A stretch of 63,688 bases of DNA, filler included, from Eremomyces bilateralis CBS 781.70 (GCA_010015585.1; 5 parts of 5 records of this genome joined end to end with filler, not necessarily neighbours in it), one strand, 5' to 3'; shown: positions 18,289 to 57,618, counted from the whole stretch's first letter. Notes: generated by a model from the sequence alone, not told the origin. Numbers and translations are program-made.

Positions 18289-20994
18289 TTAGTTTAAAAG
18301 AAGGTAAGGGCGGGTTCGATACCGTGTTAAGAGAGTAGAGAGTTGTCCGTCTAAGAAATTCGACCCTACGTAGTTCTTCTGTAGGTCCCGGTAGAACTTG
18401 GCCGTTTTAAGCTCGCAGAGGCCGCCAACGGAGAGAACGAGGGGGAAGAAGTCCTTACCGTGAGCCCGATACTTTGCAATCTTGGCCTTGGCTGCCTCGT
18501 CGAGGACCTGAAGGGGCGGCCTAGCTTTGACGGAGCTCGCGTGGACTGAGACGACGGTGAGGTCGTAGAAGGTCTCTCCAGGGGGGCCCAGGACCGAGAT
18601 GTCAGCGCGGTGGCCAGTGGGGTCACGTGAGTCAAAGGGAGGCTCCTCCTTGATAGTCCTCGAGGGGTAAGCCACGCGCATGGCGCGCGCTAAGACTCCT
18701 CGGATCGTATCATGGCGGGTGGCGGTCCCTCGTTGCCTTGTTCGGCATGACTCCGCGTGGAAGGGTGTGTTTTCTATTCCGCAAGGGCAAATGGGCTCTT
18801 GGTCGCCTCCGAGGAGCATTCGAAGTTTCAGGGCCGTAGCTAGCTCTCCGTCCGCAAGAAGAAGTGGTTTTTATGAAGGCAGGACGTTAAGCCAGTGGCG
18901 ACCGAAAAACGACGCGTTTTCCGTCAGGGTAGCGACCCTCGTGGGGTCCTTTTGGTCGCTAAGGGTCTTTTGGACCCGTTCTAGCCGTTGACGGGCCAGA
19001 GATTGCCCGATTTCCCTCTGGGGGGGCGTGGGGGGCCTTGGGGGGTCTGGAGGGAGGTCTGGGGGCGGAGGAGTTCCAACAAAGACGTAGGCGACTGGGA
19101 GGGGCTGAACTGGGTCGTCTGGGTCAATCAAGGGATCCCGGAGGGGCGTAGGCCAGCCAAGGGCGGTCCGGAGGGACTGGGAGGCGAGCTTTGAGGCCGA
19201 TCGGTAAGCTGGGATGCTTAGTTCCTCGTAGAGGGGGAGACCGAGGCCTCCGAGCTTCACCGGCAAGGCGATTAGGTCTCGATCGAGCGGGTAGGACGTC
19301 GGGTCGCCTCGAATCAGGCCAATGGCGCGCTGGATTTCGTCGTCTGCAGTCTGCCAGGTTTCTCCGAGGCCGAATGGGTGTAGAGTTCTTAGGAGGTGGC
19401 GGAGGGTTAGCGACACGCACGTGCGTAGGAGGAGGAGGGCTCCTTGTTTCGGGAGGGCGAGGATCCGGGAGACGGCGGTCTTGAATTCGACGATTTTCGC
19501 TTCTAGGAACTGTTTCCTAGCGTCGTCCGGTCCGATGAAGCTTCCGAGTGCCCGAATTCCCTCATTTCGGACGAAAGTAGTCGAATATTCGCTACTTTTC
19601 GTCTCGTTTAAGATCAGGGGCGCTCGGAGGTTCCGAAGGGTGTCCCGAACGATTCCCCGGGCTCCTTCGTTTGGCGAGAAAAGGTAGATATCGTCGAGAT
19701 AGGCGATCATCTTGACTCGTGGGCCGAGGACTTCGTGGAGGGCGCTGAGGGTATCCCGAATTGCGATCGAGAAGAAGAAGGGGCCGAGGGGATCTCCTTG
19801 GCGGACTCCTTGGGCGGACGTGAGGAGGGGGCCGCCTGTCGTGGCCAGAATGGAGGGTTCTCCGTAGGCCCATTGGGCTAGGCGGTAGAAGTCTGGGGCG
19901 TACTTGTAGATTCCCTTAGCCATGGCGGTCCTATCGACGGTATTGAAGGCGTTTGAGAAGTCCAACGACGTAATTCTGGAGAATTGGGCCTTCTGGTCGC
20001 CGAAAACGGTCCGTTCAATGGCACGCAGGGCTGGTTCCACTCCTCCAGGGGATCCTACGCCAAGCTGGTATGGGAGAAGGGAGCTTGGCGAGTAGTTTTC
20101 CCGCAGGATCGCCTTGGCTACGACTCGGTAGAGGAGATCTCCGACGGCGATTGGTCGAAGGCCTCCGTCTTCCTTTGTCAAGGCCACCAGGCGGGCGGCG
20201 AGGAGGAGGTCTCGTCCGTGGGCGGTCCCTTGGACGATCTGCTTACCGAGGAGTTCGAGAAACGAGGCAAATTGAGGCTCCTTTGTTGCGATTTCCGTCA
20301 GAGCCTTGGTCCATCCGCTCAGTCCTGCCGAGGTTTCCGTGGGAAGGGAGCGTATTGCGGCCCAGATGGTGTCCTTGGATGGGGCACGTCCGGAGCGGGG
20401 CTTGAGGGAGCCTCCAAAGGGGCGGGGCGGGCCAGGGGGGTGTTTTTTCCGCAAGATTTCCAGGTTTTCCGCTGTTAGCGGGGCGGGGCGGGCGTCCGAG
20501 ATCAGAGTCCGAACGGCTCGGGAGAGGTAGCCACGTTTAAGGAGCTTTTGGGCCTTCTCGAGGGTCTTTGGCTGTAGTTCTGATATGTCCTGGGGGATAG
20601 GCGGCGAAGGGGAACGAGGAGGCGTTAGAGGTTCCATGATCGGGGGCGGAAGAGGGGCAGGAGGCCGAATGTTTGGGTATTTCCGGAGGGTTTCCGCGAT
20701 TGGTTGTCCGAGGCCACCTTCTCGAGCTAGCGCGAGGACTTTTGGGAGCAGGAGGATGTCGAGGAGGGACGCGGCGGTTGGGCGGGCCAGGTATACTGCG
20801 GAACAGCGGGCTGCGGCGGTTGCGAAGGCTTTGGCGTATCTTCCGTGCAGAGGGTCTTCGGTTGGGGCGACATGGGCGTAGCTGAGGAGCACTTCGAGCT
20901 CTGGGGAGATTTCCGGGACCGGAGGGGATTCCGTTGGCTGGCTGGGGTTATCCGGGCCTGTAGGAGGCGGCGGAGGGGCGGGGCGGAGATTTTT
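18289..20994 (-). mobile_element. RLE-type non-LTR retrotransposon (CRE/Cnl1/MoTeR-like), one premature stop, 5' end in a gap
   Basis: RT motifs GLRPIAVG, LDFSNAFN, GVRQGDPLGP, AYLDD and LGGLG. These are followed in the same frame by CPCG...HAESC, RHD, RADI, YDLTV and KIAKY (restriction-like endonuclease). ORFs 18871-20892 and 18289-18819 share a frame and are separated by a single TAA. Confidence 0.88.
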
Positions 20995-21411
20995 NNNNNN
21001 NNNNNNNNNNNNNNNNNNNNNNNNNNNNNNNNNNNNNNTTAATTAATTAANNNNNNNNNNNNNNNNNNNNNNNNNNNNNNNNNNNNNNNNNNNNTAGGCC
21101 TCGGATGGGTGCGGGTGGGTTGGGTTGGGGTTCTCTTGGCGTGCGGGTGGGGTGGGGTGGGGTTCTCCAAACCTGGATTCCCAACCCAACCCCACCCGCA
21201 TGCCAAGCAACCCAAACCCAACCCCACCCGCAGGCAACCAGGGACAAACCCAACCCCACCCCATGCCAAGAAACCTTGGGGGAACCGCGGGGTGGGGTTT
21301 TCTGCGGGTTCAACCCCAACCGCAAGATGGGTTGGGTTTCTTGGCGCATCTGATGGGTTTCTTGGCATTATTAAAAGGGCTTTAGACTAGATTAGGCTAG
21401 TAGCATATAGA

Positions 21412-21469
21412 GAGAGAGATTCATACGCCCGTCAGGCCTCTCTGCGAGGCCCATGTGGGGAACTAGCTA
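21412..21469 (-). mobile_element. 5'-truncated SINE/LINE-tail insertion, family D, with (TC)n tail
   Basis: 16-bp TSD GCTAGTAGCATATAGA at 21396-21411 and 21470-21485. Confidence 0.85.
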
Positions 21470-21804
21470 GCTAGTAGCATATAGAAGATGTGGTAGTCAG
21501 ATGTGGTAGTCAGATATGGTAGTTTAGTCACGCGGTATAAAATGTAAGTAGGAAGCTTTCTATTTAATTCTGGCTATAGAAGTTTATCCGGCGCATTAAG
21601 CAGGATCATTAATCTAAGAGTATACGATGCTCACTCACCCATCGTATACCCAAACCTGCGACTTGTTATTCGCCTTAACTGACAAATTGGAGAATTATAA
21701 AAACGCCATCCATTGACACCCATAACTCATGATATACGTTAAGCCATAACTAAAATATATTAGTTTATATAATCATGGTAGGATTCAGACCTTACCTTCA
21801 CGTT

Positions 21805-22346
21805 TTACTTTCGAGCGTGCTTCCTAACCGAAATGAAAGACCCGTCGCACAACCTTTCCACCAGCTCGATATCCTTCGCCTGGAGAGTTACGCGCTTGGC
21901 ATGGATGGCACAGAGGTTGGAATCTACGGTGTGTTAGTTATGTGGTAGTCAGGAGGAAGTAAATAAAAACATACTCTCAAAAAGCTTTACAAGGTATGCT
22001 TCTGATGCTTCTTGGAGCGCCTCGAGCGCAGACCTCTGGAAACGATACCCTCCATCGTAATTGAAGTCACCTGAGATCTCGCGCACAAGTCGAGCAAATG
22101 GCAATTTCGGAATCAGCAGTTCGGTTGATTTTGCCAACTGCTTGATCTCTCGAAGCACAGACACTTAGAGGTTTAGCTACTACTACACCGACTACTACAC
22201 AGAAACTTACTGCCAGGACGTTTGAAGTATGCGCCAGTCTTCGTCTTCCTTACAGGCTTTCTCGAATTCGTAGACCGTTTCCTGGCTGGGGGGCGCTTTC
22301 TGCCAGGAGTGTGCTTTCCGCCGGGGGGGCGGTTTTGAGATGGCAT
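21805..22346 (-). CDS. Divergent histone H3-like protein (147 aa, 3 exons: 22346-22211, 22163-21975, 21923-21805)
   Basis: Spliced product: [147 protein letters not shown]. Clear H3 histone fold with GT-AG introns of 47 and 51 nt. Confidence 0.92.
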
Positions 22347-23117
22347 GGTTATTCGTCGAATCGTTGGTAGAGTTATGACCGTATTGTTTGTTAGGTTTCG
22401 GTTGTAGAGAAGGCTAGGTATGGAGGAGAAAAAGGAAGGTAAAGAGAGAGGACTAGGTTGTTGGTTAGTCGACGTTGTTATGAGTAAAGGTAAGGTTTCT
22501 CACCAGGTTATCACTTCTGAAAATAATTCCAAGTCCTTTTTACCAATAACTCTGGCAAATCTTGATCGTTTTCGACCAAACGAAGTAATCTCAGCGTGGT
22601 AGTACTTGTGGTGGTCACCAAGAGCAATTTCCTCAAGATGGGAGATCTCCTAGGATATATAAAAATTAGTAAGAAGTGAAAATTAATGTCGAAAGTGACA
22701 TTCAAGTGGCTAACCGTCCTGCGAGCTTAATTCTACAAGATTTAAGCTTACTACTGCATTCGAAGTGCGGTAGTATTCGTGGTAGTCGAGTTATGTTATA
22801 AAAGGAAGAAAAACGGGTGAGTTAACGAAAATATCGAGATTTCTAAGTGTTTTGAATTTCTTCGTATTTCACTTCACTTATGAAAACCTAACCAAAATAA
22901 ACTATCCCCCAAACAAAACCTTTACCAAAACAAAACTTTCCTCTTAATGAAACTTTCTTCCCCTTACCCTAACGCCTCCCAATCTTGATTATTTTCCATG
23001 CTAGTTACAAGATTGTAAGAGTTATTAATATTTCAAAAGTGAGAATCTCAATAACTAACTTTCTGCTAGCTTCACCTATCCCATGATCCAGTGACCGGCA
23101 GTCTTAACGAGACGACA

Positions 23118-24547
23118 ATGACGGCTAAGCGGAAGGCGGTGGCCGATCTCTCTACCAATGCGAATACAGCTCGCGAGCGAAAGCGTCGGGATGCCCGGGA
23201 TGCAAGTCGCGTCGAATATGAGAACCGCAAAAAGGCTGATCAGACTGCGGTATCGCGCGCACGGGCAGCTATAGCGCTGTTACCAAATTTCAGGTCGAGT
23301 GGGACCGACAAGCGACAAGAGCTACTTCGTGTAGCGGTCGAACAAGTGACCAACGAAAGGTCAGTTATGTGTACCAGTCAATGTGGTAACTAGTATTTTT
23401 ACTAACTAATCTAGGATTAATCGTGGAGTCCATCACTCGCTCCATCCCCTTGCGGCGGTCCCTGCGACGACTAGGACTGCGCAGGACCCAAAGTTATTTC
23501 TCAATAAGCTCTATCCCGATGCCGATAACGATAGCGATTGGGAAGATCTCCATGAAGATATGGAAACTTCGGTCGATCAGGATTTCGAAATCCTAAACAG
23601 TATGCCCCTCCCGCCAACATTTAATTCGACGGATTTCAGGTTCTGGGCGGAATACAAGCGAACTGTTGCCAAATATGATTTCTATAATCGGATCGAATTG
23701 GGAGAATGGCGTCGCTTTACCAAACGATGGCAACGAGCACGAAAGGCGGTTCTATATAAGAGCCGAGCTATCAACCGAGCGAGAACTTTAGACGGTCGGC
23801 TTAGCCTTGGAAAGCTATGGCTTCTGGTAGACACCGTGGAGATTTTGGTAAGTGTGGTAGTTTATGTGGTAGTCCTATACTAACCGCATTTAGCGATCGA
23901 GTGCCGAACTGCAAAGGCTGATCCGAGCAGATTGGCAATCTTTCGGCTTAAACGCCGAAGACCAAGATTGCGCAGAACTTGAGTGGATAGTTCGTAATGC
24001 CCCGGCGTTGGACGACTGGCTGTCATCTCCGGCGTTCTACTCGAAGGGTCATTTAGATCTTCACCTCGTATGGCCGAAGCTCCCCTTCGCGATTCGATAT
24101 TTTCTCGTAAGTTTAATGCGGTAGTCAGCGTGGTAGTCTCTTTTCGGCTTATTTGACATTTTAAATCAGAACCAGAGCGCCACTTTCTCAACGGCGCCTT
24201 TTGCGCACCAAATTTTCAAGGATCGACACGAGAGAGGCATTTTAATTGGGTTCCTCGCTTGGGCTGGTCGATACCAATATGAATTCCCCTTCCCGGCTTG
24301 CTTGTGGGATGCGCCTGATAACGATGAAAGATGGGGACTTTCTAAGATTAGCGACTCGAAGACGGCTGCCATGATGTATGATGGTTTTAAACTCGTCTTT
24401 AAACCGCCTGGGAACTGCGAAGCCCCCCCTGACGCCTACCGCATCGACTGTCCAATTGATAGAGATGCGATGATCGGAGATGGATACTTGCTATCGCTCC
24501 GCCCTAACGGTGAGCGAGGGAACGCTATTTGGAAAAGGAGGATGTGA
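23118..24547 (+). CDS. Orphan hAT cargo protein ORF2 (~421 aa, 4 exons: 23118-23359, 23415-23847, 23894-24106, 24170-24547)
   Basis: Three GT-AG introns join the ORF-track pieces 23091, 23560 and 24302, plus an intervening exon, into one stop-free frame. Basic helical N-terminus. No recognised domain. Confidence 0.75.
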
Positions 24548-24836
24548 CAAGGCATCTAGCTATTCGATTGATAGGCTGGAACATTGACTACCACACCGAC
24601 TAGTACGCCCTTCGCAGACATAGTTCTGCAGCATATGAATAACGGATTCGGGCAGAATATGGGGGGCTGGTGGACCAGGAATTAATATACATTCTGCTTC
24701 AACCCATTTCCTGTGATGAATTGATAATATTCTATTAAGTACTTCAATCACGATAATACATTACTGCCATACTGACTACCACACTGACTACCACTTTTTA
24801 TCATTACTTAAACCTGTCTTTTACTCTATTTCTAAG

Positions 24837-27738
24837 ATGGCCTCTTTATACACTGATTCAGAGCCGACTGAGCCCCAGTCAAGCTTTACCGAAGCAAGGT
24901 CTGCGATCGAATCGTCCGACGGAATCGGTGTCGATGGTCTCCGGCAGTATACGATCAAAAACACGACATATTATGTTGTTGACCGAGATAACCCCGCGCC
25001 GTTTGACGATTGGTGGAAGAGAACCCAATTCTGCCTTAGGAACAAGGCTAGAGACCCTGACAAGCGGTTTAAGCCAACGTGGGATAGAAAAGTGGTTCGT
25101 TCTGATTACTGGTCCTACTTCGAAGAAATCGCCGAGTCTGCTACAGGGGTTGTTAAGATCCATTGTATCCGCTGTGGTTTTGTTGGGGGCCACCCAGCTG
25201 TAATCACTGAGAGGCTAGACGGCAGTCTCGGATCACGTACTGGCAATTCGACAATGAAGGCGCACCTTCGGTCAGGAAATTGTATGCAGAAAGCTGATAA
25301 CAAGGGCCTAACCCAGTTGACATTTCACGATATTACCGATCCAAGGCGCAAGGTAAGAGACTACTATATGAACTAGTATATACACTTTCCCTAATAGAGT
25401 TTAGGCTAGAGTTGATAGGACCCGAGCTGCCCAATTCCTTGAGGGACAACGGGTTACCTCGAAGCATTTCTTGGATTGTCTGGCTCGAATGATTGTTTCT
25501 CGGGGTATCCCTATGAACTTCTTCGAGGATCCTGAAGTCCAGCGGTCCTATCTCTGCCTAACGACTACTGAACCACCATTTAGTAACCCAAAGAGTCTGC
25601 GGAATCGGATCTTCACTCTCTATGAATCCGCGACGAAGGCAACTCGGGATGATCTTGCCCACCCTGATAGCATCAAACAGAAAATTGGTCTCGCGGTCGA
25701 TGGCTGGTCCGCAAAGTCTGGCCGTACAGGCTATCTTGGAATTCTCGCCTATTGGACCTCGACGGACATGAAATGGCATGAGGCGCTTTTAGCGTTCACG
25801 CCAACTGAGGCTAGGCATTCCGGTCGGGACCTAGCGGAGATGATCATGCAGACACTACTCAAGTTTCGAATTACTGACCGTCTACGCTCAATCACTGCAG
25901 ACAATGCTTCGTCAAATGGCACGATGGTCGCGTCTATCAACGACGAGTTGAAATTTCTGTTGTCGTCACATGGAAGCTTAGACCCGGTCGTATCAATCCC
26001 TTGTATCTCCCATGTTATTCAGCTGGTCCAGGGAGAACTCCTCAAAGGCCTCAAGTGCGTGGCGGAGAATTCGGAGATTATCCGAAACTGGGATGAAAAG
26101 GAGTTTGTGAGGGAGCAGCGCGCAATTGCGTCGTATGGGGCGGTGCCAATTACACTTTGGAAGGTGAGTCTCTACTCCTTGTAAAATGTGGTAGTCAATG
26201 TGGTAGTCATTACTAATATAGTCTAGGCTCGACAGACCGCTAAACACATTGTGGCATCGGAGAAACGACTGAGAGATTTTCTTAAGATCCAGCAGGAGCT
26301 TATCGACCAGGAACACCCGACCCTGGACAAACAGGAGCTCTTCTGGGTTAGCCTGCTCCGGCAACCCCTGCGTCCACTACAAGACGTCAAAACACGATGG
26401 GACTCGACTACGCAGATGCTTGTTCGACTCCGCATTCTTCGCCAACCCCTTGACCGTTACTGGCGTCAGGTTTCGAAGCAGTCGATGGCCCTCGATCCTC
26501 AACAATGGGATATCATCGAATACCTTATTGATATGACCGCTCCACTAAATGCATTTACGCAGTCAATTGGCAGATCGTCGTCCCCATCAATCCACAGAGT
26601 CTACACGATCTACGATACTACATTCGGCCATCTTGAATCTACGATCGATAGACTTAAGAAGAAGCATGCTTCGTGGAAGATTAGCCTCAAGGAGAGCTTG
26701 GTGAATGCCGTAGAGAAGTTGAAGAAGTACTATAGCAGGACTAGTGTTTTTACAGCTCTTGATGAAGCATACGCGTTCTCTTTCCTACTCAGTCCTAGGA
26801 CACGAAATACTGCTTTCACTTCATCGGCTTGGAAAGGGAGGGCTAATAACCGGGGACAAAATTACCGAACAGTCTACATGGGGAGACTGCGGGATCATTG
26901 GGAGGAACACTACAAGGTTGACAACCCAACCCAATCAGAAGAGGGAGCAGCTTATACACGCGGAATTGACTATGTGCGTCAACGGTTGCATCAAGATGTT
27001 CAGCCCACCGAGGGTTCAAACTCTCGATCAATGGACGAGCTAGCAAGATATTTTGACTCTTGTAAGTACATATTCCCCTTTATTCATACTCCGATCTCTT
27101 ACTAATCTTTTAATATAGGCTCGTCAAACAATATTGAACCTCTCGAAGCTTGGCGCGAGAATGGAAACTACATAGCCTACCCAACAGTTGCTCGGATGGC
27201 TCGCGACTACCTTTGTTCTCCGGCAGCATCCGTTGGCGTCGAGCGCCTATTTTTCCTTGCTCGCTGTCAGTCAGAGTTCAATCGGGAGTATAAGAGTGAA
27301 ACACTCGAGGCGATCATGGTGGCCAAGGCGAGGTTGAAGCTTGACTTTCAGATAGAATCCGAGCGTCTCCAAGAGCTGGAGGAAGAGCTAGGTGATATCG
27401 GTGATGCTGATACGTCTACGCTAGACACACTGGTTATAGAATCGGACACTCGTAAGAGGCATACTAATAGTATCCTGCGCGCGACGGGTGAAGGGGAAAT
27501 TCATTTGATCAGCGACGGTGAAGATAGTGAGGATGATGTTGAGGATGACGGGAGGGATAGCGATCCTAATACTGGGGAAGATAGGAGGGACGCTGATCAG
27601 AGCGATGGTCTAGGGGAACCAGACGAGACACTAGATGAGTTAGGTGAAGATTACGATACAGCTGGAGTAGCAAAGAGGACACGAAGTAGTACTATGGCAA
27701 GTGAACCTCAAGACCGTTCGAAGCGGAATAGGTTATAG
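24837..27738 (+). CDS. hAT transposase (~909 aa, exons 24837-25352, 25405-26163, 26227-27061, 27119-27738)
   Basis: BED-like finger (CIRC...HLRSGNC), motifs AVDGWS, ITADNASSN, CISH and TRWDST, and dimerisation domain SVGVERLF. All introns are GT-AG and in frame, with no stops. Confidence 0.93.
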
Positions 27739-28153
27739 ATAGGTTTTCTTCTATTAGAGTACTTTTGAATGAAATTAATTTCTTTCCCTTGACTACCACA
27801 CTTGACTACCACATATGACTACTATATTTAATCCCCTATTCTATCCTACAACCGGATCGTACCTCTAGTTATGCCAAGAAACCCAACCCATCTTGCGGTT
27901 GGGGCTAAACCCGCAGAAAACCCCACCCCGCGGTTCCCCAAGGTTTCTTGGCATGGGGTGGGGTTGGGGCGGGGTTTCTTGGCGTGCGGGTGGGGTTGGG
28001 GTGGGGTTTTGAAATATTGGCTTCCCACCCCAACCCCACCCGCAAACCGGCGGGTGGGGTTGGGTTTGGGTTTGCCAAGAACCCGCACCCAACCCGTTTT
28101 TTGCGGGTTGAACCCGCACCCATCCGAGGCCTAAGATTAACCTTGATCCTGAA

Positions 28154-28307
28154 GAGCCGGATCCTACGAAAACAGGCTGTTCCTGCAGCTATTTTATATG
28201 GTTTAAAATGGTGATCTTTTCCCTAAGAAGGGGAAGAATAGGGGTATAGAATCGAATACGGAATGAAGCCGTGGGGAAACGCCAAGAAACACAGATATTC
28301 TGTGACA
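28154..28307. repeat. LTR-like fragment family E, ending TGTGACA
   Basis: Diverged copy of 55140-55298. It abuts the hAT right end. Confidence 0.75.
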
Positions 28308-28327
28308 AGATAGAAAATGCAGATGGT

Positions 28328-28435
28328 GGCACAAGGCCACAAGGTACCAATGTATGTAATTAGTCAGCTTAGGTAGTTCCCCACATGGGCCTCGCCGAGA
28401 GGCCTGACGGGCGTATGAATCTCTCTGTCTCTCTC
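28328..28435 (+). repeat. SINE-like family D copy
   Basis: ...GGGCCTCGCCGAGAGGCCTGACGGGCGTATGAATCTCTCT, shared with the other D copies. Confidence 0.85.
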
Positions 28436-28451
28436 GTGGCCTTGTATAGTA

Positions 28452-29408
28452 TTAATATACACAGTACGTACTTTTGCATAAAGCACATGCCGCAGCATTA
28501 CACTCCGGACAATGAAAAGTAAATTTAGTGGGAGTCTCTCCACAAAAGATGCAGCTTGCTTCTCCTTTCTTTTTGGGCCAGCCTAGCTGGGGATGAATGC
28601 AATCCCTCGTAGGATGCTGAGTCGCGGGTTGCCCTGGCTTGGCTTGTCGACGCTCCGCGGCTTCTCGTATGCTTGCCCAATTCTGTCGAATTGCGTCCTG
28701 CTTCTCCTCTATCAATATGGACTTAAGCCGCTCCTTCGCAGCCATCTCTCGCTCTTGTCTTGCTCTCTTCGCAGACTCTTCAGACTTTCGTTCCGCCTCC
28801 ATTTCTTTCTGTTTGTGCAACCGTTCTATCGCCGCATGTTCTTGTTCTTCCCTAGCCTTTCGTGCCACCTCCCGTGACCGATATTCCGCCATTCTTTCTC
28901 TCAATTCCCTGTCTCGCGCCAGTCGCTCTTCCTCAGCTCTCCTGCGTGACGCCCTTTCCTCTGCTGCTTTTGCATCCTGCTCTGCTTGTTCCCTAGCGGC
29001 TCGTTGTTCCTCTGCCATCCTACGTGCCCGCTCGGCTTCTCGTCTGAGCTCTTTATTTCGGCGCTGTGTCTCTTGCCATATGCGATATTGGACCCATTCT
29101 CCTCGTAATTGTGGGTAATATGCGTCATATTCCGAGCGCTTTGAAGCATCACGGAGACATTCATAGGCCTCCCTAATCTGACCTGGCGCTTTAGCTTCTC
29201 TCTGCTGTTTAGAATTCTTAGTACTTACCCTGCGAAAATCGTGAGCATCAGTGATCTTCCCTGGAGCTTGTTTGTCTGGATGATGCTTTTTTGCCAGTAA
29301 ATGGTGTGCCCTTTTTATGTCCTGGAACGTTGCTGTTTGCTGTAGACCAAGGGCTAAGTAATAGTCTGACATTTGTGGACGCTCTAGCTCTGGTATAGTC
29401 TCATCCAT
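28452..29408 (-). CDS. DnaJ-domain protein with coiled coil and C-terminal Cys-rich region
   Basis: DYYLALGL...HHPDKQ J-domain. Probable in-frame 51-nt intron after DFRR. C-terminal CxxC pairs. Confidence 0.85.
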   Translation of the reverse strand: MDETIPELERPQMSDYYLALGLQQTATFQDIKRAHHLLAKKHHPDKQAPGKITDAHDFRRVSTKNSKQQREAKAPGQIREAYECLRDASKRSEYDAYYPQLRGEWVQYRIWQETQRRNKELRREAERARRMAEEQRAAREQAEQDAKAAEERASRRRAEEERLARDRELRERMAEYRSREVARKAREEQEHAAIERLHKQKEMEAERKSEESAKRARQEREMAAKERLKSILIEEKQDAIRQNWASIREAAERRQAKPGQPATQHPTRDCIHPQLGWPKKKGEASCIFCGETPTKFTFHCPECNAAACALCKSTYCVY

Positions 29409-36756: not shown

Positions 36757-36860
36757 AGAGAGAGAGAGAGAGAGATTCATACGCCCGTCAGGCCTCTCTG
36801 TGAGGCCCATGTGGGGAACTAGCTAGGATGACTAATTACATGATGGTTGCCTTGTGTCTA
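36757..36860 (-). repeat. SINE-like family D copy
   Basis: (GA)n followed by TTCATACGCCCGTCAGGCCTC... Confidence 0.85.
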
Positions 36861-43711: not shown

Positions 43712-43801
43712 AAGAGAGAGATAGATTCATATGCCCGTCAGGCCTCTCGGCGAGGCCCATGTGGGGAACTACCTAAGCTGACTAATTACATACATTGGTG
43801 C
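43712..43801 (-). repeat. SINE-like family D copy, cut by LTR C
   Basis: Matches the family-D sequence. Confidence 0.85.
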
Positions 43802-45866: not shown

Positions 45867-46008
45867 TATAGATTCCTCCTTCATAGCAACAATTCAATGT
45901 TTACCTCACGATTGGAGTTTCCCTACAGTAAGGTCCTTATACTTACGATTAGGGTGTCCGATATGGGCCTCGGTGAGAGGCCTAACGGGCGTATGAATCT
46001 CTCTCTCA
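45867..46008. repeat. Adjacent diverged fragments of LTR C and SINE-like D
   Basis: ATAGATTCCTCCTTCATAGCAACAATTCAATG (C), then GGGCCTCGGTGAGAGGCCTAACGGGCGTATGAATCTCTC (D). Confidence 0.75.
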
Positions 46009-57458: not shown

Positions 57459-57618
57459 GAGAGAGAGAGAGAGAGATTCATACGCCCGTCAGGCCTCTCG
57501 GCGAGGCCCATGTGGGGAACTACCTAAGCTGACTAATTACATACGTTGGTGCCTTGTGGCTTTGTGCCCCATTTTTCTATCTCCTTCTTCTATCTTCTCT
57601 AATTATCTGCTTCTAACA
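57459..57618 (-). repeat. SINE-like family D, longest copy
   Basis: (GA)n-TTCATACGCCCGTCAGGCCTCTCGGCGAGGCCCATGTGGGGAACTACCTAAGC... Confidence 0.85.

Follow-up and report, generated by a model that had tools for sequence, protein, structure and literature searches.

The DNA analysed here, a window of 63,688 nucleotides (filler included) from Eremomyces bilateralis CBS 781.70, raises the question of why one short word recurs, mostly in pairs, through the non-coding parts of a single transposon, and of what might read it. The transposon is a hAT of 7,039 bp, of which 4,440 bp are coding, and its parts are given below in the positions of the window.

21095..28133, unstranded: complete three-gene hAT (H3-like gene, ORF2, transposase), with terminal inverted repeats (TIRs) and the Pfam domains Dimer_Tnp_hAT and Histone
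21095..21390, unstranded: left subterminal region of G-rich units and TTCTTGGC repeats, with inverted similarity to 27873-28044
21805..22346, minus: coding sequence of the H3-like gene, H3L (147 aa; exons 22346-22211, 22163-21975 and 21923-21805; intact frame)
23118..24547, plus: ORF2, the 'central ORF' (421 aa; exons 23118-23359, 23415-23847, 23894-24106 and 24170-24547)
24837..27738, plus: hAT transposase (909 aa; exons 24837-25352, 25405-26163, 26227-27061 and 27119-27738; intact frame)
27870..28133, unstranded: right subterminal region, with G-rich and TTCTTGGC repeats as on the left

The TIRs are 22 bp long and perfect (21095-21116 and 28112-28133); the left end adjoins a contig linker, so there is no left flank to compare for an 8-bp target-site duplication. 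PF00125 Histone matches exons 2 and 3 of the H3-like gene, and PF05699 Dimer_Tnp_hAT matches exon 4 of the transposase (E=1.8e-09). A C-terminal dimerisation domain in the transposase, and TIRs that enclose an H3-like gene as well as a central ORF, place the element in the H3-like-carrying three-gene hAT family. The gene model of ORF2 is identical to the database protein P0001 (source: Eremomyces bilateralis). Searches of Pfam (up to E=5), PDB sequences, Foldseek and the ESM Atlas returned for ORF2 neither a family or fold match nor a recognisable DNA-binding domain, and its predicted fold is confident only at residues ~20-95, as helices. In run X1 the hAT contigs have 5.4x the depth of the flanking contig, and variant letters are absent at 21441-27178. 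With three intact genes, raised depth and no variant letters the element looks active, and its word sites would therefore be under current selection.

The word, TGTGGTAGTC (complement GACTACCACA), exists as a distinct unit, is restricted to the element's non-coding DNA and is arranged in tandem. At no more than one mismatch it has 19 matches window-wide, 17 of them within the hAT (21095-28133), none in the hAT coding sequence (4,440 bp) and 2 in the host DNA of the window (56 kb, the sole host DNA compared). One hundred dinucleotide-preserving shuffles of the window gave a mean of 2.70 matches and a maximum of 8, so that 19 was reached in 0/100. When two mismatches are allowed there are 78 matches window-wide and 27 within the hAT, of which 24 are non-coding and 3 lie in coding exons (23823, 24434 and 25958, with two mismatches each). 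The octamer GTGGTAGT ranks first among the 8-mers of the non-coding interior of the hAT, with 15 occurrences per 1,954 positions, and is found 0 times per 4,363 coding positions and once per 55,993 positions outside the hAT. The word is enriched in the introns and in the intergenic and terminal non-coding DNA of the hAT and is rare elsewhere, as judged from the window's 56 kb of host DNA. Its core GGTAGT is retained in 24-27 of the 28 tabulated sites (one tabulated row is one base off), and the variants among these sites are mostly transitions. The word forms 13 clusters, in which tandem copies are spaced 11-13 bp.

21489..21524, plus: left inner-end triplet, 13-bp period, mismatches 0, 0 and 2
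21930..21950, plus: pair in H3L intron 2 (21924-21974), mismatches 2 and 0, 11 bp apart
22178..22199, minus: pair in H3L intron 1 (22164-22210), TGTAGTAGTA and TGTAGTAGTC, 12 bp apart, with neighbours oriented oppositely
22595..22616, plus: pair in the H3L 5'UTR exon 22504-22648, whose flanking minus-strand introns are skipped in X3 contigs
22766..22787, plus: pair in the divergent spacer between H3L and ORF2, with TATAAAAG ~10 bp further on
23370..23391, plus: decayed pair in ORF2 intron 1, TGTACCAGTC and TGTGGTAACT, 3 mismatches each, 12 bp apart
23853..23874, plus: pair in ORF2 intron 2, downstream of the 5' splice site and upstream of the branch site; intron skipped in X3
24117..24138, plus: pair in ORF2 intron 3; intron skipped in X3 contigs
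24586..24607, minus: pair 40 bp past the ORF2 stop codon, mismatches 0 and 3
24774..24795, minus: pair ~45 bp ahead of the transposase ATG, which matches the pair in transposase intron 2 in inverted orientation
25359..25380, minus: decayed pair in transposase intron 1, mismatches 2 and 4
26187..26208, plus: perfect pair in transposase intron 2; intron skipped in X3 contigs
27791..27826, minus: right inner-end triplet, 13-bp period, mismatches 0, 0 and 2

A preliminary description of this DNA had placed the word in introns and spacers of the element, and at each position that it gave a mismatch scan finds the word or a close variant. Its statement that copies are usually paired 12-13 bp apart is borne out, given that 12 of the 13 same-strand pairs found in the window (11-13 bp apart, at most two mismatches per copy) lie inside the hAT; block shuffles (n=100) contain 0.08 such pairs on average and never more than 1. 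The period is 12 bp in the internal pairs and 13 bp in both terminal triplets, which are inverted images of one another. It was also right to separate the word from the subterminal repeats, since the ends carry TTCTTGGC and G-rich units instead; the two ends hold 7 of the 10 TTCTTGGC copies and all 13 GGGTGGGG copies of the window. The outermost copies of the word stand 395 bp (left) and 308 bp (right) inside the tips, with 11 of the 13 clusters deeper. Relative to the nearer end, 11/13 clusters read TGTGGTAGTC inwards (p=0.022, post hoc). The word is present in both orientations relative to transcription; in the RNA sense GACUACCACA is read by all six UTR and spacer clusters and UGUGGUAGUC by five of the seven intron clusters (p=0.021, post hoc). 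A purely strand-blind reader of DNA does not predict this orientation bias.

All word sites are transcribed, and the contigs of a probable RNA run (X3) skip every predicted intron that they cover, including both coding introns of H3L, the three introns of ORF2 and, in contig 18, introns 2 and 3 of the transposase. The pair at 22595/22607 falls in the H3L 5'UTR exon, as the introns at 22453-22503 and ~22650-22714 are skipped. X3 contig 17 extends over the left triplet, beyond the 3' end of the H3L coding sequence, and X3 contig 18 over the right one, beyond that of the transposase. Word clusters therefore occur in UTR exons, and the rule is 'non-coding' and not 'intron'. This narrows two claims made for the word at the outset. 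Its absence from exons holds for coding exons at no more than one mismatch and fails for the UTR exon pair and for the terminal triplets. Its presence in nearly every intron holds for the coding-region introns, 6/8 of which carry it at no more than two mismatches, with a further decayed pair in ORF2 intron 1 (3 mismatches per copy), and fails for the UTR introns (0/4) and for transposase intron 3.

Relatives of the element were compared by reading published consensus sequences and by word counts, in which words split by line ends are missed; several of these sequences are RIP-degraded. The H3-carrying hAT consensus sequences (PMC6710886, Additional file 2) have the same layout and lineage-specific words, TAGTCGG[C/T], TAGCCGG[C/T] and CTGTGATAA, whereas TGTGGTAGTC has 0 matches in the seven published family consensus sequences of that file. 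Across the five parts of the file the relatives carry tandem arrays of their own word at a 12-13-bp period, placed in GTAAGT...TACTAAC...TAG introns, leaders and inner ends and reaching 6-16 copies. The count for TAGTCGG[C/T] is 54 matches, on both strands, in Czm, Smu and Spo, and for TAGCCGG[C/T] 43 matches, mostly in Pfi; TGTGATAA/TTATCACA has 14 matches, and all 12 among the matches listed belong to the Ptr part (PMC6710886, Additional file 2). Reading and word counts together give four lineage-specific words across the family. The six leading bases are similar across lineages (YGTGGT in the window's element, CGTGGT or CGTAGT in Spo). The H3L intron ahead of '...LREI' holds the local word in Ptr, in Pfi and in the window's element, in an orientation that differs between the last and Ptr. 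By eye, nearly all Ptr copies have one orientation relative to their own gene. The outer-end repeats (G-rich, TTCTTGGC-like) look conserved across lineages by eye (Peu, Ptr), but the inner word varies, which argues for two readers.

Further relatives are found among database proteins that are 37-43% identical to ORF2 and are read through introns. Their tails back-translate to the word in pairs 11-13 nt apart, as in P0003, which has the insert LVFVVVFVVVHTNKFR at the position of intron 1, and in the similar tails of P0014 and P0013. In total these read-through tails hold 7 word-compatible sites, versus 1.3 per 1,000 residues in shuffles. An ORF2-like N-terminus, KRK..YST..N..R.RERK, was seen by eye in the Pfi consensus. 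The lineage-specific words of the relatives are an observed feature of the family, and neither a host factor nor a splicing signal readily accounts for a separate word per lineage at a common 12-13-bp period.

The word may be a private, cis-acting address label that is read by a protein of the element, with ORF2 as the likeliest reader; we give this reading about an even chance. The tandem arrays would be candidate ~10-bp binding sites on double-stranded DNA, repeated every 12-13 bp, and would occupy practically all the parts of the element that can vary freely, namely introns, UTRs, spacers and inner ends. We infer the protein reader, its identity, the reading of the word as DNA and its effect. 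The reader would be a sequence-specific protein encoded by the element, most probably the conserved orphan ORF2, and the transposase would more likely read the distinct repeats found within 300 bp of either tip. Between lineages the word and its reader would change jointly, so that each lineage recognises itself alone. The element would most likely use the label to govern its chromatin or its expression from end to end, in the manner of VANC in VANDAL, and the label may also help in the assembly of the transposition complex.

The explanation that competes best with an address label read by ORF2, although we consider it unlikely, is that the arrays are extended binding sites of the transposase, read by a BED-like N-terminal finger, with the internal arrays gathering transposase or pairing the ends. 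The mutual inversion of the inner-end triplets and the inward reading of 11/13 clusters are what end-related sites should show. In the sections of PMC10368747 covered here, hAT transposases use the BED domain to bind subterminal repeats that are short and lineage-specific, and need 150-250 bp per end, but the Hermes transposase sites are 4-bp words gathered at the tips. The class of hAT subterminal repeats, which lie within ~50-250 bp of the tips, does not accommodate a word that starts 395 and 308 bp in and has 11 of 13 clusters deeper. Sites this far inside would titrate the transposase or make false ends, and the outer 300 bp already carry a separate, dense TTCTTGGC/G-rich system that by eye is conserved while the inner word changes.

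A more elaborate form of the address label, to which we give only a small chance, has ORF2 as an adaptor that would read the arrays and load or hold the element's H3 variant on them, so that the whole element would lie in private nucleosomes that the host heterochromatin machinery handles poorly. Word and reader would then drift together and each lineage would protect itself alone. In logic such private nucleosomes would be similar to the point centromere, at which a variant H3 is deposited by a chaperone that a DNA word attracts; in purpose they would be VANC-like.

Two further explanations are both improbable, and to the same degree. If the pairs were promoter or enhancer modules of the three genes, read by a transcription factor of the host or of the element, their presence in both intergenic spacers would be expected, and TATA-like strings do follow three clusters by 10-40 bp (TATAAAA at 21534, TATATAAAAA at 22657 and TATAAAAG at 22798), although such strings are frequent in AT-rich spacers. 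Seven clusters are nevertheless intronic, and both triplets, at 3' ends of convergently placed genes, are distant from promoters. A host factor site, moreover, should not vary with every element lineage, and at no more than one mismatch the window's host DNA (56 kb) holds just 2 matches. The word might instead act in RNA, as a private splicing or retention signal, as a dock for an RNA-binding protein or through pairing of complementary copies in the pre-mRNA. This would fit the transcription of all sites, their orientation bias relative to the transcript, the way in which an intron pair fills the stretch from the 5' splice site to the branch site, and the occurrence of both complementary forms in each pre-mRNA, for example 24770-24800 against 26212-26182, an inverted match of 90% over 31 nt. 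Five introns that lack the word are nonetheless skipped in the X3 contigs (27062-27118, 23015-23069, ~22650-22714, 22453-22503 and 21750-21795), and copies stand in UTR exons and spacers, so the word is not needed for splicing. An intronic splicing signal was rejected on these five introns, on the 6/13 clusters that lie outside introns and on the inversion of two of the 7/13 that lie inside. The orientation in the homologous H3L intron differs from that of Ptr, a signal that addresses the conserved host spliceosome would not be expected to be swapped per lineage, and the G-to-A variants of the word would disrupt RNA pairing. It is very improbable that the arrays have no function and are slippage-prone 12-13-bp units spread in neutral DNA by gene conversion and barred from coding sequence, for although the 6-16 copies in relatives are typical of slippage and the variants are mostly transitions, one word stands at 13 separate places with coding exons between them, the layout is kept in homologous introns and in lineages with ORF2 only 37-43% identical, and neutral introns would not retain a common word, period and placement across such distances.

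The word arrays provide a testable handle on the retained H3 gene and the conserved central ORF, namely which protein binds them and whether the H3 variant is found there. They also suggest that a very short intron in a fungus can serve almost wholly as the carrier of a DNA signal. If a reader of the address label were found, this would be the first case of sequence-specific self-recognition in a fungal DNA transposon, a second and independent invention of the VANC principle, and a possible tool for sequence-targeted chromatin change.

Fungal transposons with a histone H3 gene have been known since 2013. In the sections of PMC3538342 and PMC6710886 covered here, the H3-like hAT 'transduplication' elements of Dothideomycetes have the same layout of transposase, central ORF and H3-like gene as this hAT, and the same G-rich subterminal repeats. 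Short introns packed with tandem word arrays are also common to both (PMC6710886), and the Smu consensus shares by eye the terminal letters ...CGAGGCCTA. Compared with the Dothideomycetes elements, the present copy is intact, spliced and multi-copy, and belongs to another fungal order (Eremomyces bilateralis). The same sections of these two papers do not mention the word arrays, the main text of PMC6710886 has 0 occurrences of 'motif', 'subterminal', 'binding site' and 'tandem repeat', and a description of the arrays was not found in the literature searched.

Among better known systems, the maize element En/Spm encodes a non-transposase protein, TnpA, that binds a repeated ~12-bp motif, aids transposition and reactivates the silenced element. 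Its motifs are known only from the subterminal 180-300 bp of a member of the CACTA superfamily, unlike the word found throughout this hAT. In Hermes, itself a hAT, the repeat is AAGT or AAGC, 4 bp long, bound by the BED domain and concentrated in the first tens of bases (PMC10368747, in the sections covered). The Hermes repeats and the present word are alike in being short, repeated, element-specific and present in both orientations, but those of Hermes lie near the ends and are needed beyond the TIRs, whereas this word has 10 bp and runs from 300-400 bp inside the ends through the whole interior.

The closest counterpart is VANDAL21 (Hi) of Arabidopsis, whose protein VANC21 binds a word and causes loss of DNA methylation; the word is tandem, is found in introns, between genes and in terminal non-coding DNA, and changes from one related element to another (PMC5735166, in the sections covered, as for the comparisons that follow). 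VANDAL21 is a plant Mutator-like element, and the present one is a fungal hAT that also carries a histone H3 variant; binding by VANC is established, whereas ORF2 is a candidate reader and is unrelated to any known family. The tandem arrays of VANDAL21 are of high density, and those of this hAT are strictly spaced at 12-13 bp and mostly pairs. Given that the element is a hAT and that ORF2 has no Pfam family up to E=5, the likeness to VANDAL is one of analogy and not of membership by descent. The proposal of a VANDAL-like self-recognition in the preliminary description stands in its anatomy (non-coding placement, tandem arrays and a word that differs among relatives), with the amendment that the word is also found in UTR exons. 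In both systems the word is absent from the coding parts, repeated in tandem and replaced in relatives, and its arrays expand and contract.

The contig at 21095-39390 begins with the element itself, its first base being the first base of the 7,039-bp H3-carrying hAT (21095-28133); contigs in the window are separated by N/TTAATTAATTAA linkers. The element ends in perfect 22-bp terminal inverted repeats, the subterminal sequence at each end is about 290 bp long, G-rich and inverted, and three intact genes, with introns that are all GT-AG, lie within it:

H3-like gene (H3L), minus strand, 147 aa
ORF2, plus strand, 421 aa
Transposase, plus strand, 909 aa

Pfam places a Histone fold in exons 2 and 3 of H3L and a hAT dimerisation domain in exon 4 of the transposase. 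The ORF2 model and the database protein P0001, which its source lists as a hypothetical protein from Eremomyces bilateralis CBS 781.70, are identical at every residue. In the public sequencing run X1, contigs of the element reach depths of 877-884 versus 162 for the flanking single-copy contig, and no variant letters are found in them across 21441-27178, which suggests, without proving it, that about five near-identical copies of the element exist.

The sequence directly to the right of the hAT (28134-28519) is itself a high-copy repeat, with 5-13 times the depth of the hAT and many variant letters, and the element therefore sits within other repeats. On the neighbouring contig, a 723-aa open frame on the minus strand (18871-21042), cut by the linker, contains by eye a YLDD-type reverse-transcriptase motif and is probably a non-LTR retrotransposon. 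The hAT carries an insert of about 59 bp (21412-21470) with a 15-bp direct duplication, CTAGTAGCATATAGA, on each side (21397-21411 and 21471-21485). In X1 and X2 this insert is covered about nine times as deeply as the hAT. It is a member of a dispersed 61-bp repeat, also present at 28370-28430, 36765-36826, 43715-43775, 45963-46007 and 57466-57526, that could be a mobile or recombining element of very small size. The G-rich subterminal regions at 21110-21232 and 27985-28044 have one internal palindrome each; Rfam returned no match at gathering score, and miRNA-precursor-like matches far below it fell only on these palindromes. Pieces of the element with 99-100% identity were also found, at a depth of 3-5, in run X4, which carries the label of another organism (B); these could be carry-over, a mislabelled relative or a recent transfer.

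The interior of the element is marked by a ten-letter word, GACTACCACA, and its close variants. Allowing at most one mismatch, the window contains the word 19 times, and 17 of these copies belong to the element (shuffles: mean 2.70, maximum 8). With at most two mismatches, 27 of 78 window matches are in the element, 24 of these being non-coding and three, all weak, falling in coding exons. An unbiased count returned GTGGTAGT as the most frequent 8-mer of the non-coding interior, with 15 occurrences in 1,954 positions, compared with none in 4,363 coding positions and one in 55,993 positions outside the element; confinement to the family was judged against 56 kb of other DNA in the window. The copies form 13 clusters, two triplets and 11 pairs when decayed ones are included, and 12 of the 13 same-strand pairs in the window with copies 11-13 bp apart belong to the element (shuffles 0.08). 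Within clusters the spacing is 12 bp in ten cases, 13 bp in four, found only in the two terminal triplets, and 11 bp in one. The core GGTAGT is almost invariant, and variation, mainly by transitions, is concentrated at positions 1-4 and 10. The coordinates that the preliminary description gave for the word are all correct, as is its separation of the word from the subterminal repeats, given that the subterminal zones use TTCTTGGC (seven of ten window copies) and G-rich units. When metagenome contigs were scanned for the pair in its exact form, 48 loci came up. By tblastn, none of them matches the transposase, ORF2 or its relatives, or the exons of H3L; open frames of at least 100 codons contain 44 of the loci, and 35 read as Thr-rich coding repeats. 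These loci are chance or coding look-alikes, with no weight for or against.

The H3-carrying hAT family is known from Manning et al. 2013 (PMC3538342) and Dhillon et al. 2019 (PMC6710886), and the parts of their main texts available to us contain no discussion of internal motifs. The seven consensuses in Additional file 2 of PMC6710886 (Czm, Peu, Pmu, Smu, Spo, Pfi and Ptr) were compared by reading and by word counts; the counts miss words split at line ends, and several consensuses are RIP-degraded. Neither GTGGTAGT nor ACTACCAC has a match in these seven sequences. Instead, each lineage in the file has a word of its own, laid out as in the present element. For TAGTCGG[C/T] the two strands together give 54 matches, in Czm, Smu and Spo, with an array of about 16 units of 13 bp each in Spo, and TAGCCGG[C/T] has 43, chiefly in Pfi. 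The Ptr word is CTGTGATAA/TTATCACAG, mostly in pairs with a 13-bp spacing; the 8-mer at its core, TGTGATAA/TTATCACA, gave 14 matches, and the 12 places shown are all in the Ptr part of the file. The short-form recombination site 'gactat' described for Ptr (Manning 2013, PMC3538342, as far as its text was available) was considered as the word and rejected, the Ptr word being CTGTGATAA.

In the relatives, arrays are flanked by GTAAGT on one side and TACTAAC...TAG on the other, which places them inside short introns; others occupy gene leaders and inner ends. In the H3-like gene, the intron right before '...LREI' contains the word of the respective lineage in Ptr and Pfi as well as in the present element. 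The words of the lineages resemble one another in their 5' half (YGTGGT here, CGTGGT/CGTAGT in Spo) and diverge in their 3' half (AGTC, CGGC). Judged by eye, the terminal letters of the Smu consensus are the same as those of this element, and G-rich and TTCTTAGC-like subterminal repeats are common to Peu and Ptr. Also by eye, the Pfi consensus (P. fijiensis) has about seven copies of its word packed into an element-type intron of the H3-like copy, at the position of H3L intron 1 here and in Ptr, and also encodes an ORF2-like N-terminus followed by an intron with a long word array; the available part of PMC6710886 reports for the P. fijiensis H3-like copy only the absence of the introns of the host gene.

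Transcription of the element was followed in run X3, a public run with the same organism label. Its RNA nature is a guess, made on the ground that exact GT..AG segments, on either strand, are left out of its contigs, whereas no intron-skipping joints were seen in the DNA runs X1 and X2. Seven of the eight modelled coding-region introns are skipped exactly, which indicates that the gene models are right; transposase intron 1 is not among the pieces listed. Four further introns, all in UTRs, are skipped by X3 contigs only:

21750-21795, intron in the H3L 3'UTR
22453-22503, intron in the H3L 5'UTR
about 22650-22714, intron in the H3L 5'UTR
23015-23069, intron in the ORF2 5'UTR

One assembled X3 contig joins H3L and ORF2 transcripts, suggesting that their divergent transcription overlaps. 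The claim that the word occurs in nearly every intron can be put in numbers: with at most two mismatches it is present in six of eight coding-region introns, ORF2 intron 1 having a decayed pair besides, and in none of the four UTR introns. Likewise, its reported absence from exons applies to coding exons (no match with at most one mismatch) but not to UTR exons, given that the X3 contigs place the pair at 22595-22616 within one. RNA-type contigs also span the two terminal triplets, in sequence 3' of the coding regions of H3L and the transposase. What the copies share is thus a "non-coding" position, not an "intron" one. Five introns without the word are nonetheless skipped in X3, and the word is dispensable for splicing.

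All sites of the word are transcribed, which makes a reader acting on RNA possible. The orientation of the clusters is not random, which would not be expected of a DNA reader blind to strand. Eleven of the 13 clusters read TGTGGTAGTC inwards from the nearer end, with the switch adjoining the element centre (p=0.022), while all six UTR and spacer clusters read GACUACCACA in RNA and five of seven intron clusters read the complement (p=0.021); both tests are post hoc and mutually confounded. The orientation in leaders has one mundane reason, namely that the opposite orientation often makes ATG-TGG-TAG mini-ORFs. In Ptr, by eye, almost all copies are aligned with their gene, unlike in this element, and for this reason no common RNA logic is apparent. 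Host readers, whether a transcription factor or the spliceosome, fit poorly, since neither would require a new word in each lineage and the spliceosome, as the X3 contigs indicate, does not need the word.

ORF2 has no family in Pfam, no match below E=4.5 in a PDB sequence search and none in Foldseek at E up to 0.001; its AlphaFold model has a mean pLDDT of 59 and its Atlas matches are all below 0.8. A bZIP-like reading of its basic N-terminus, weighed by eye, was dropped, the spacing of the conserved residues being at odds with the bZIP signature. A word-index protein search found nothing with ORF2 exon 1 and, with the ORF2-matching protein P0003, only P0003 itself. An exhaustive profile search with ORF2 returned no more than 17 further proteins, most of them ORF fragments the size of an exon, at 37-43% identity. 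Some of these stop at the conserved intron-1 position, while others continue into the intron. In P0003 this position carries an insert of 16 residues, the back-translation of which is compatible with a 5' splice site, two TGTGGTAGTC copies 12 nt apart and TACTAAC; P0014 and P0013 are compatible with pairs 11 and 13 nt apart, and P0015 with one site. Compatible 8-mer sites number seven in the intron-reading tails versus three in or near the ORF2-aligned parts (shuffles: 1.3 per 1,000 residues). These tails may thus give a second, independent hint of the word, compatibility being no proof of the bases.

The word is confined to non-coding sequence, keeps a fixed period of 12-13 bp, recurs in 13 places, occupies homologous introns of distant relatives and is replaced from lineage to lineage. 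It therefore has the behaviour of a target for a sequence-specific reader that the element encodes and that co-evolves with the word. We put at about even the chance that the arrays are docking sites on DNA for such a reader, serving self-recognition; if they are, the likeliest purpose is control of chromatin or expression. The tips hold their own repeat system, apparently conserved across lineages, which suggests separate readers: the transposase for the tips and, for the inner word, a different protein that evolves faster. For this second role the obvious candidate would be ORF2, the conserved orphan of the family.

That the inner word represents ordinary hAT subterminal repeats is improbable, because true repeats of this kind, in the part of PMC10368747 available, are shorter and placed at the tips, which here are filled by a separate repeat system. 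The element family is already known, and so is the VANC principle in plants; as far as searches of the published literature reach, a description of the word arrays in H3-carrying hATs was not found. One or other of the two 10-mer forms occurs in 148 papers, and the 15 of these that were screened, by title and opening of the abstract, concern unrelated subjects. The closest described system is that of the Arabidopsis transposon VANDAL21 and its anti-silencing protein VANC21, the analogy proposed in the preliminary description, where, according to the part of PMC5735166 available, a motif has the same distribution and is likewise tandem and lineage-specific.
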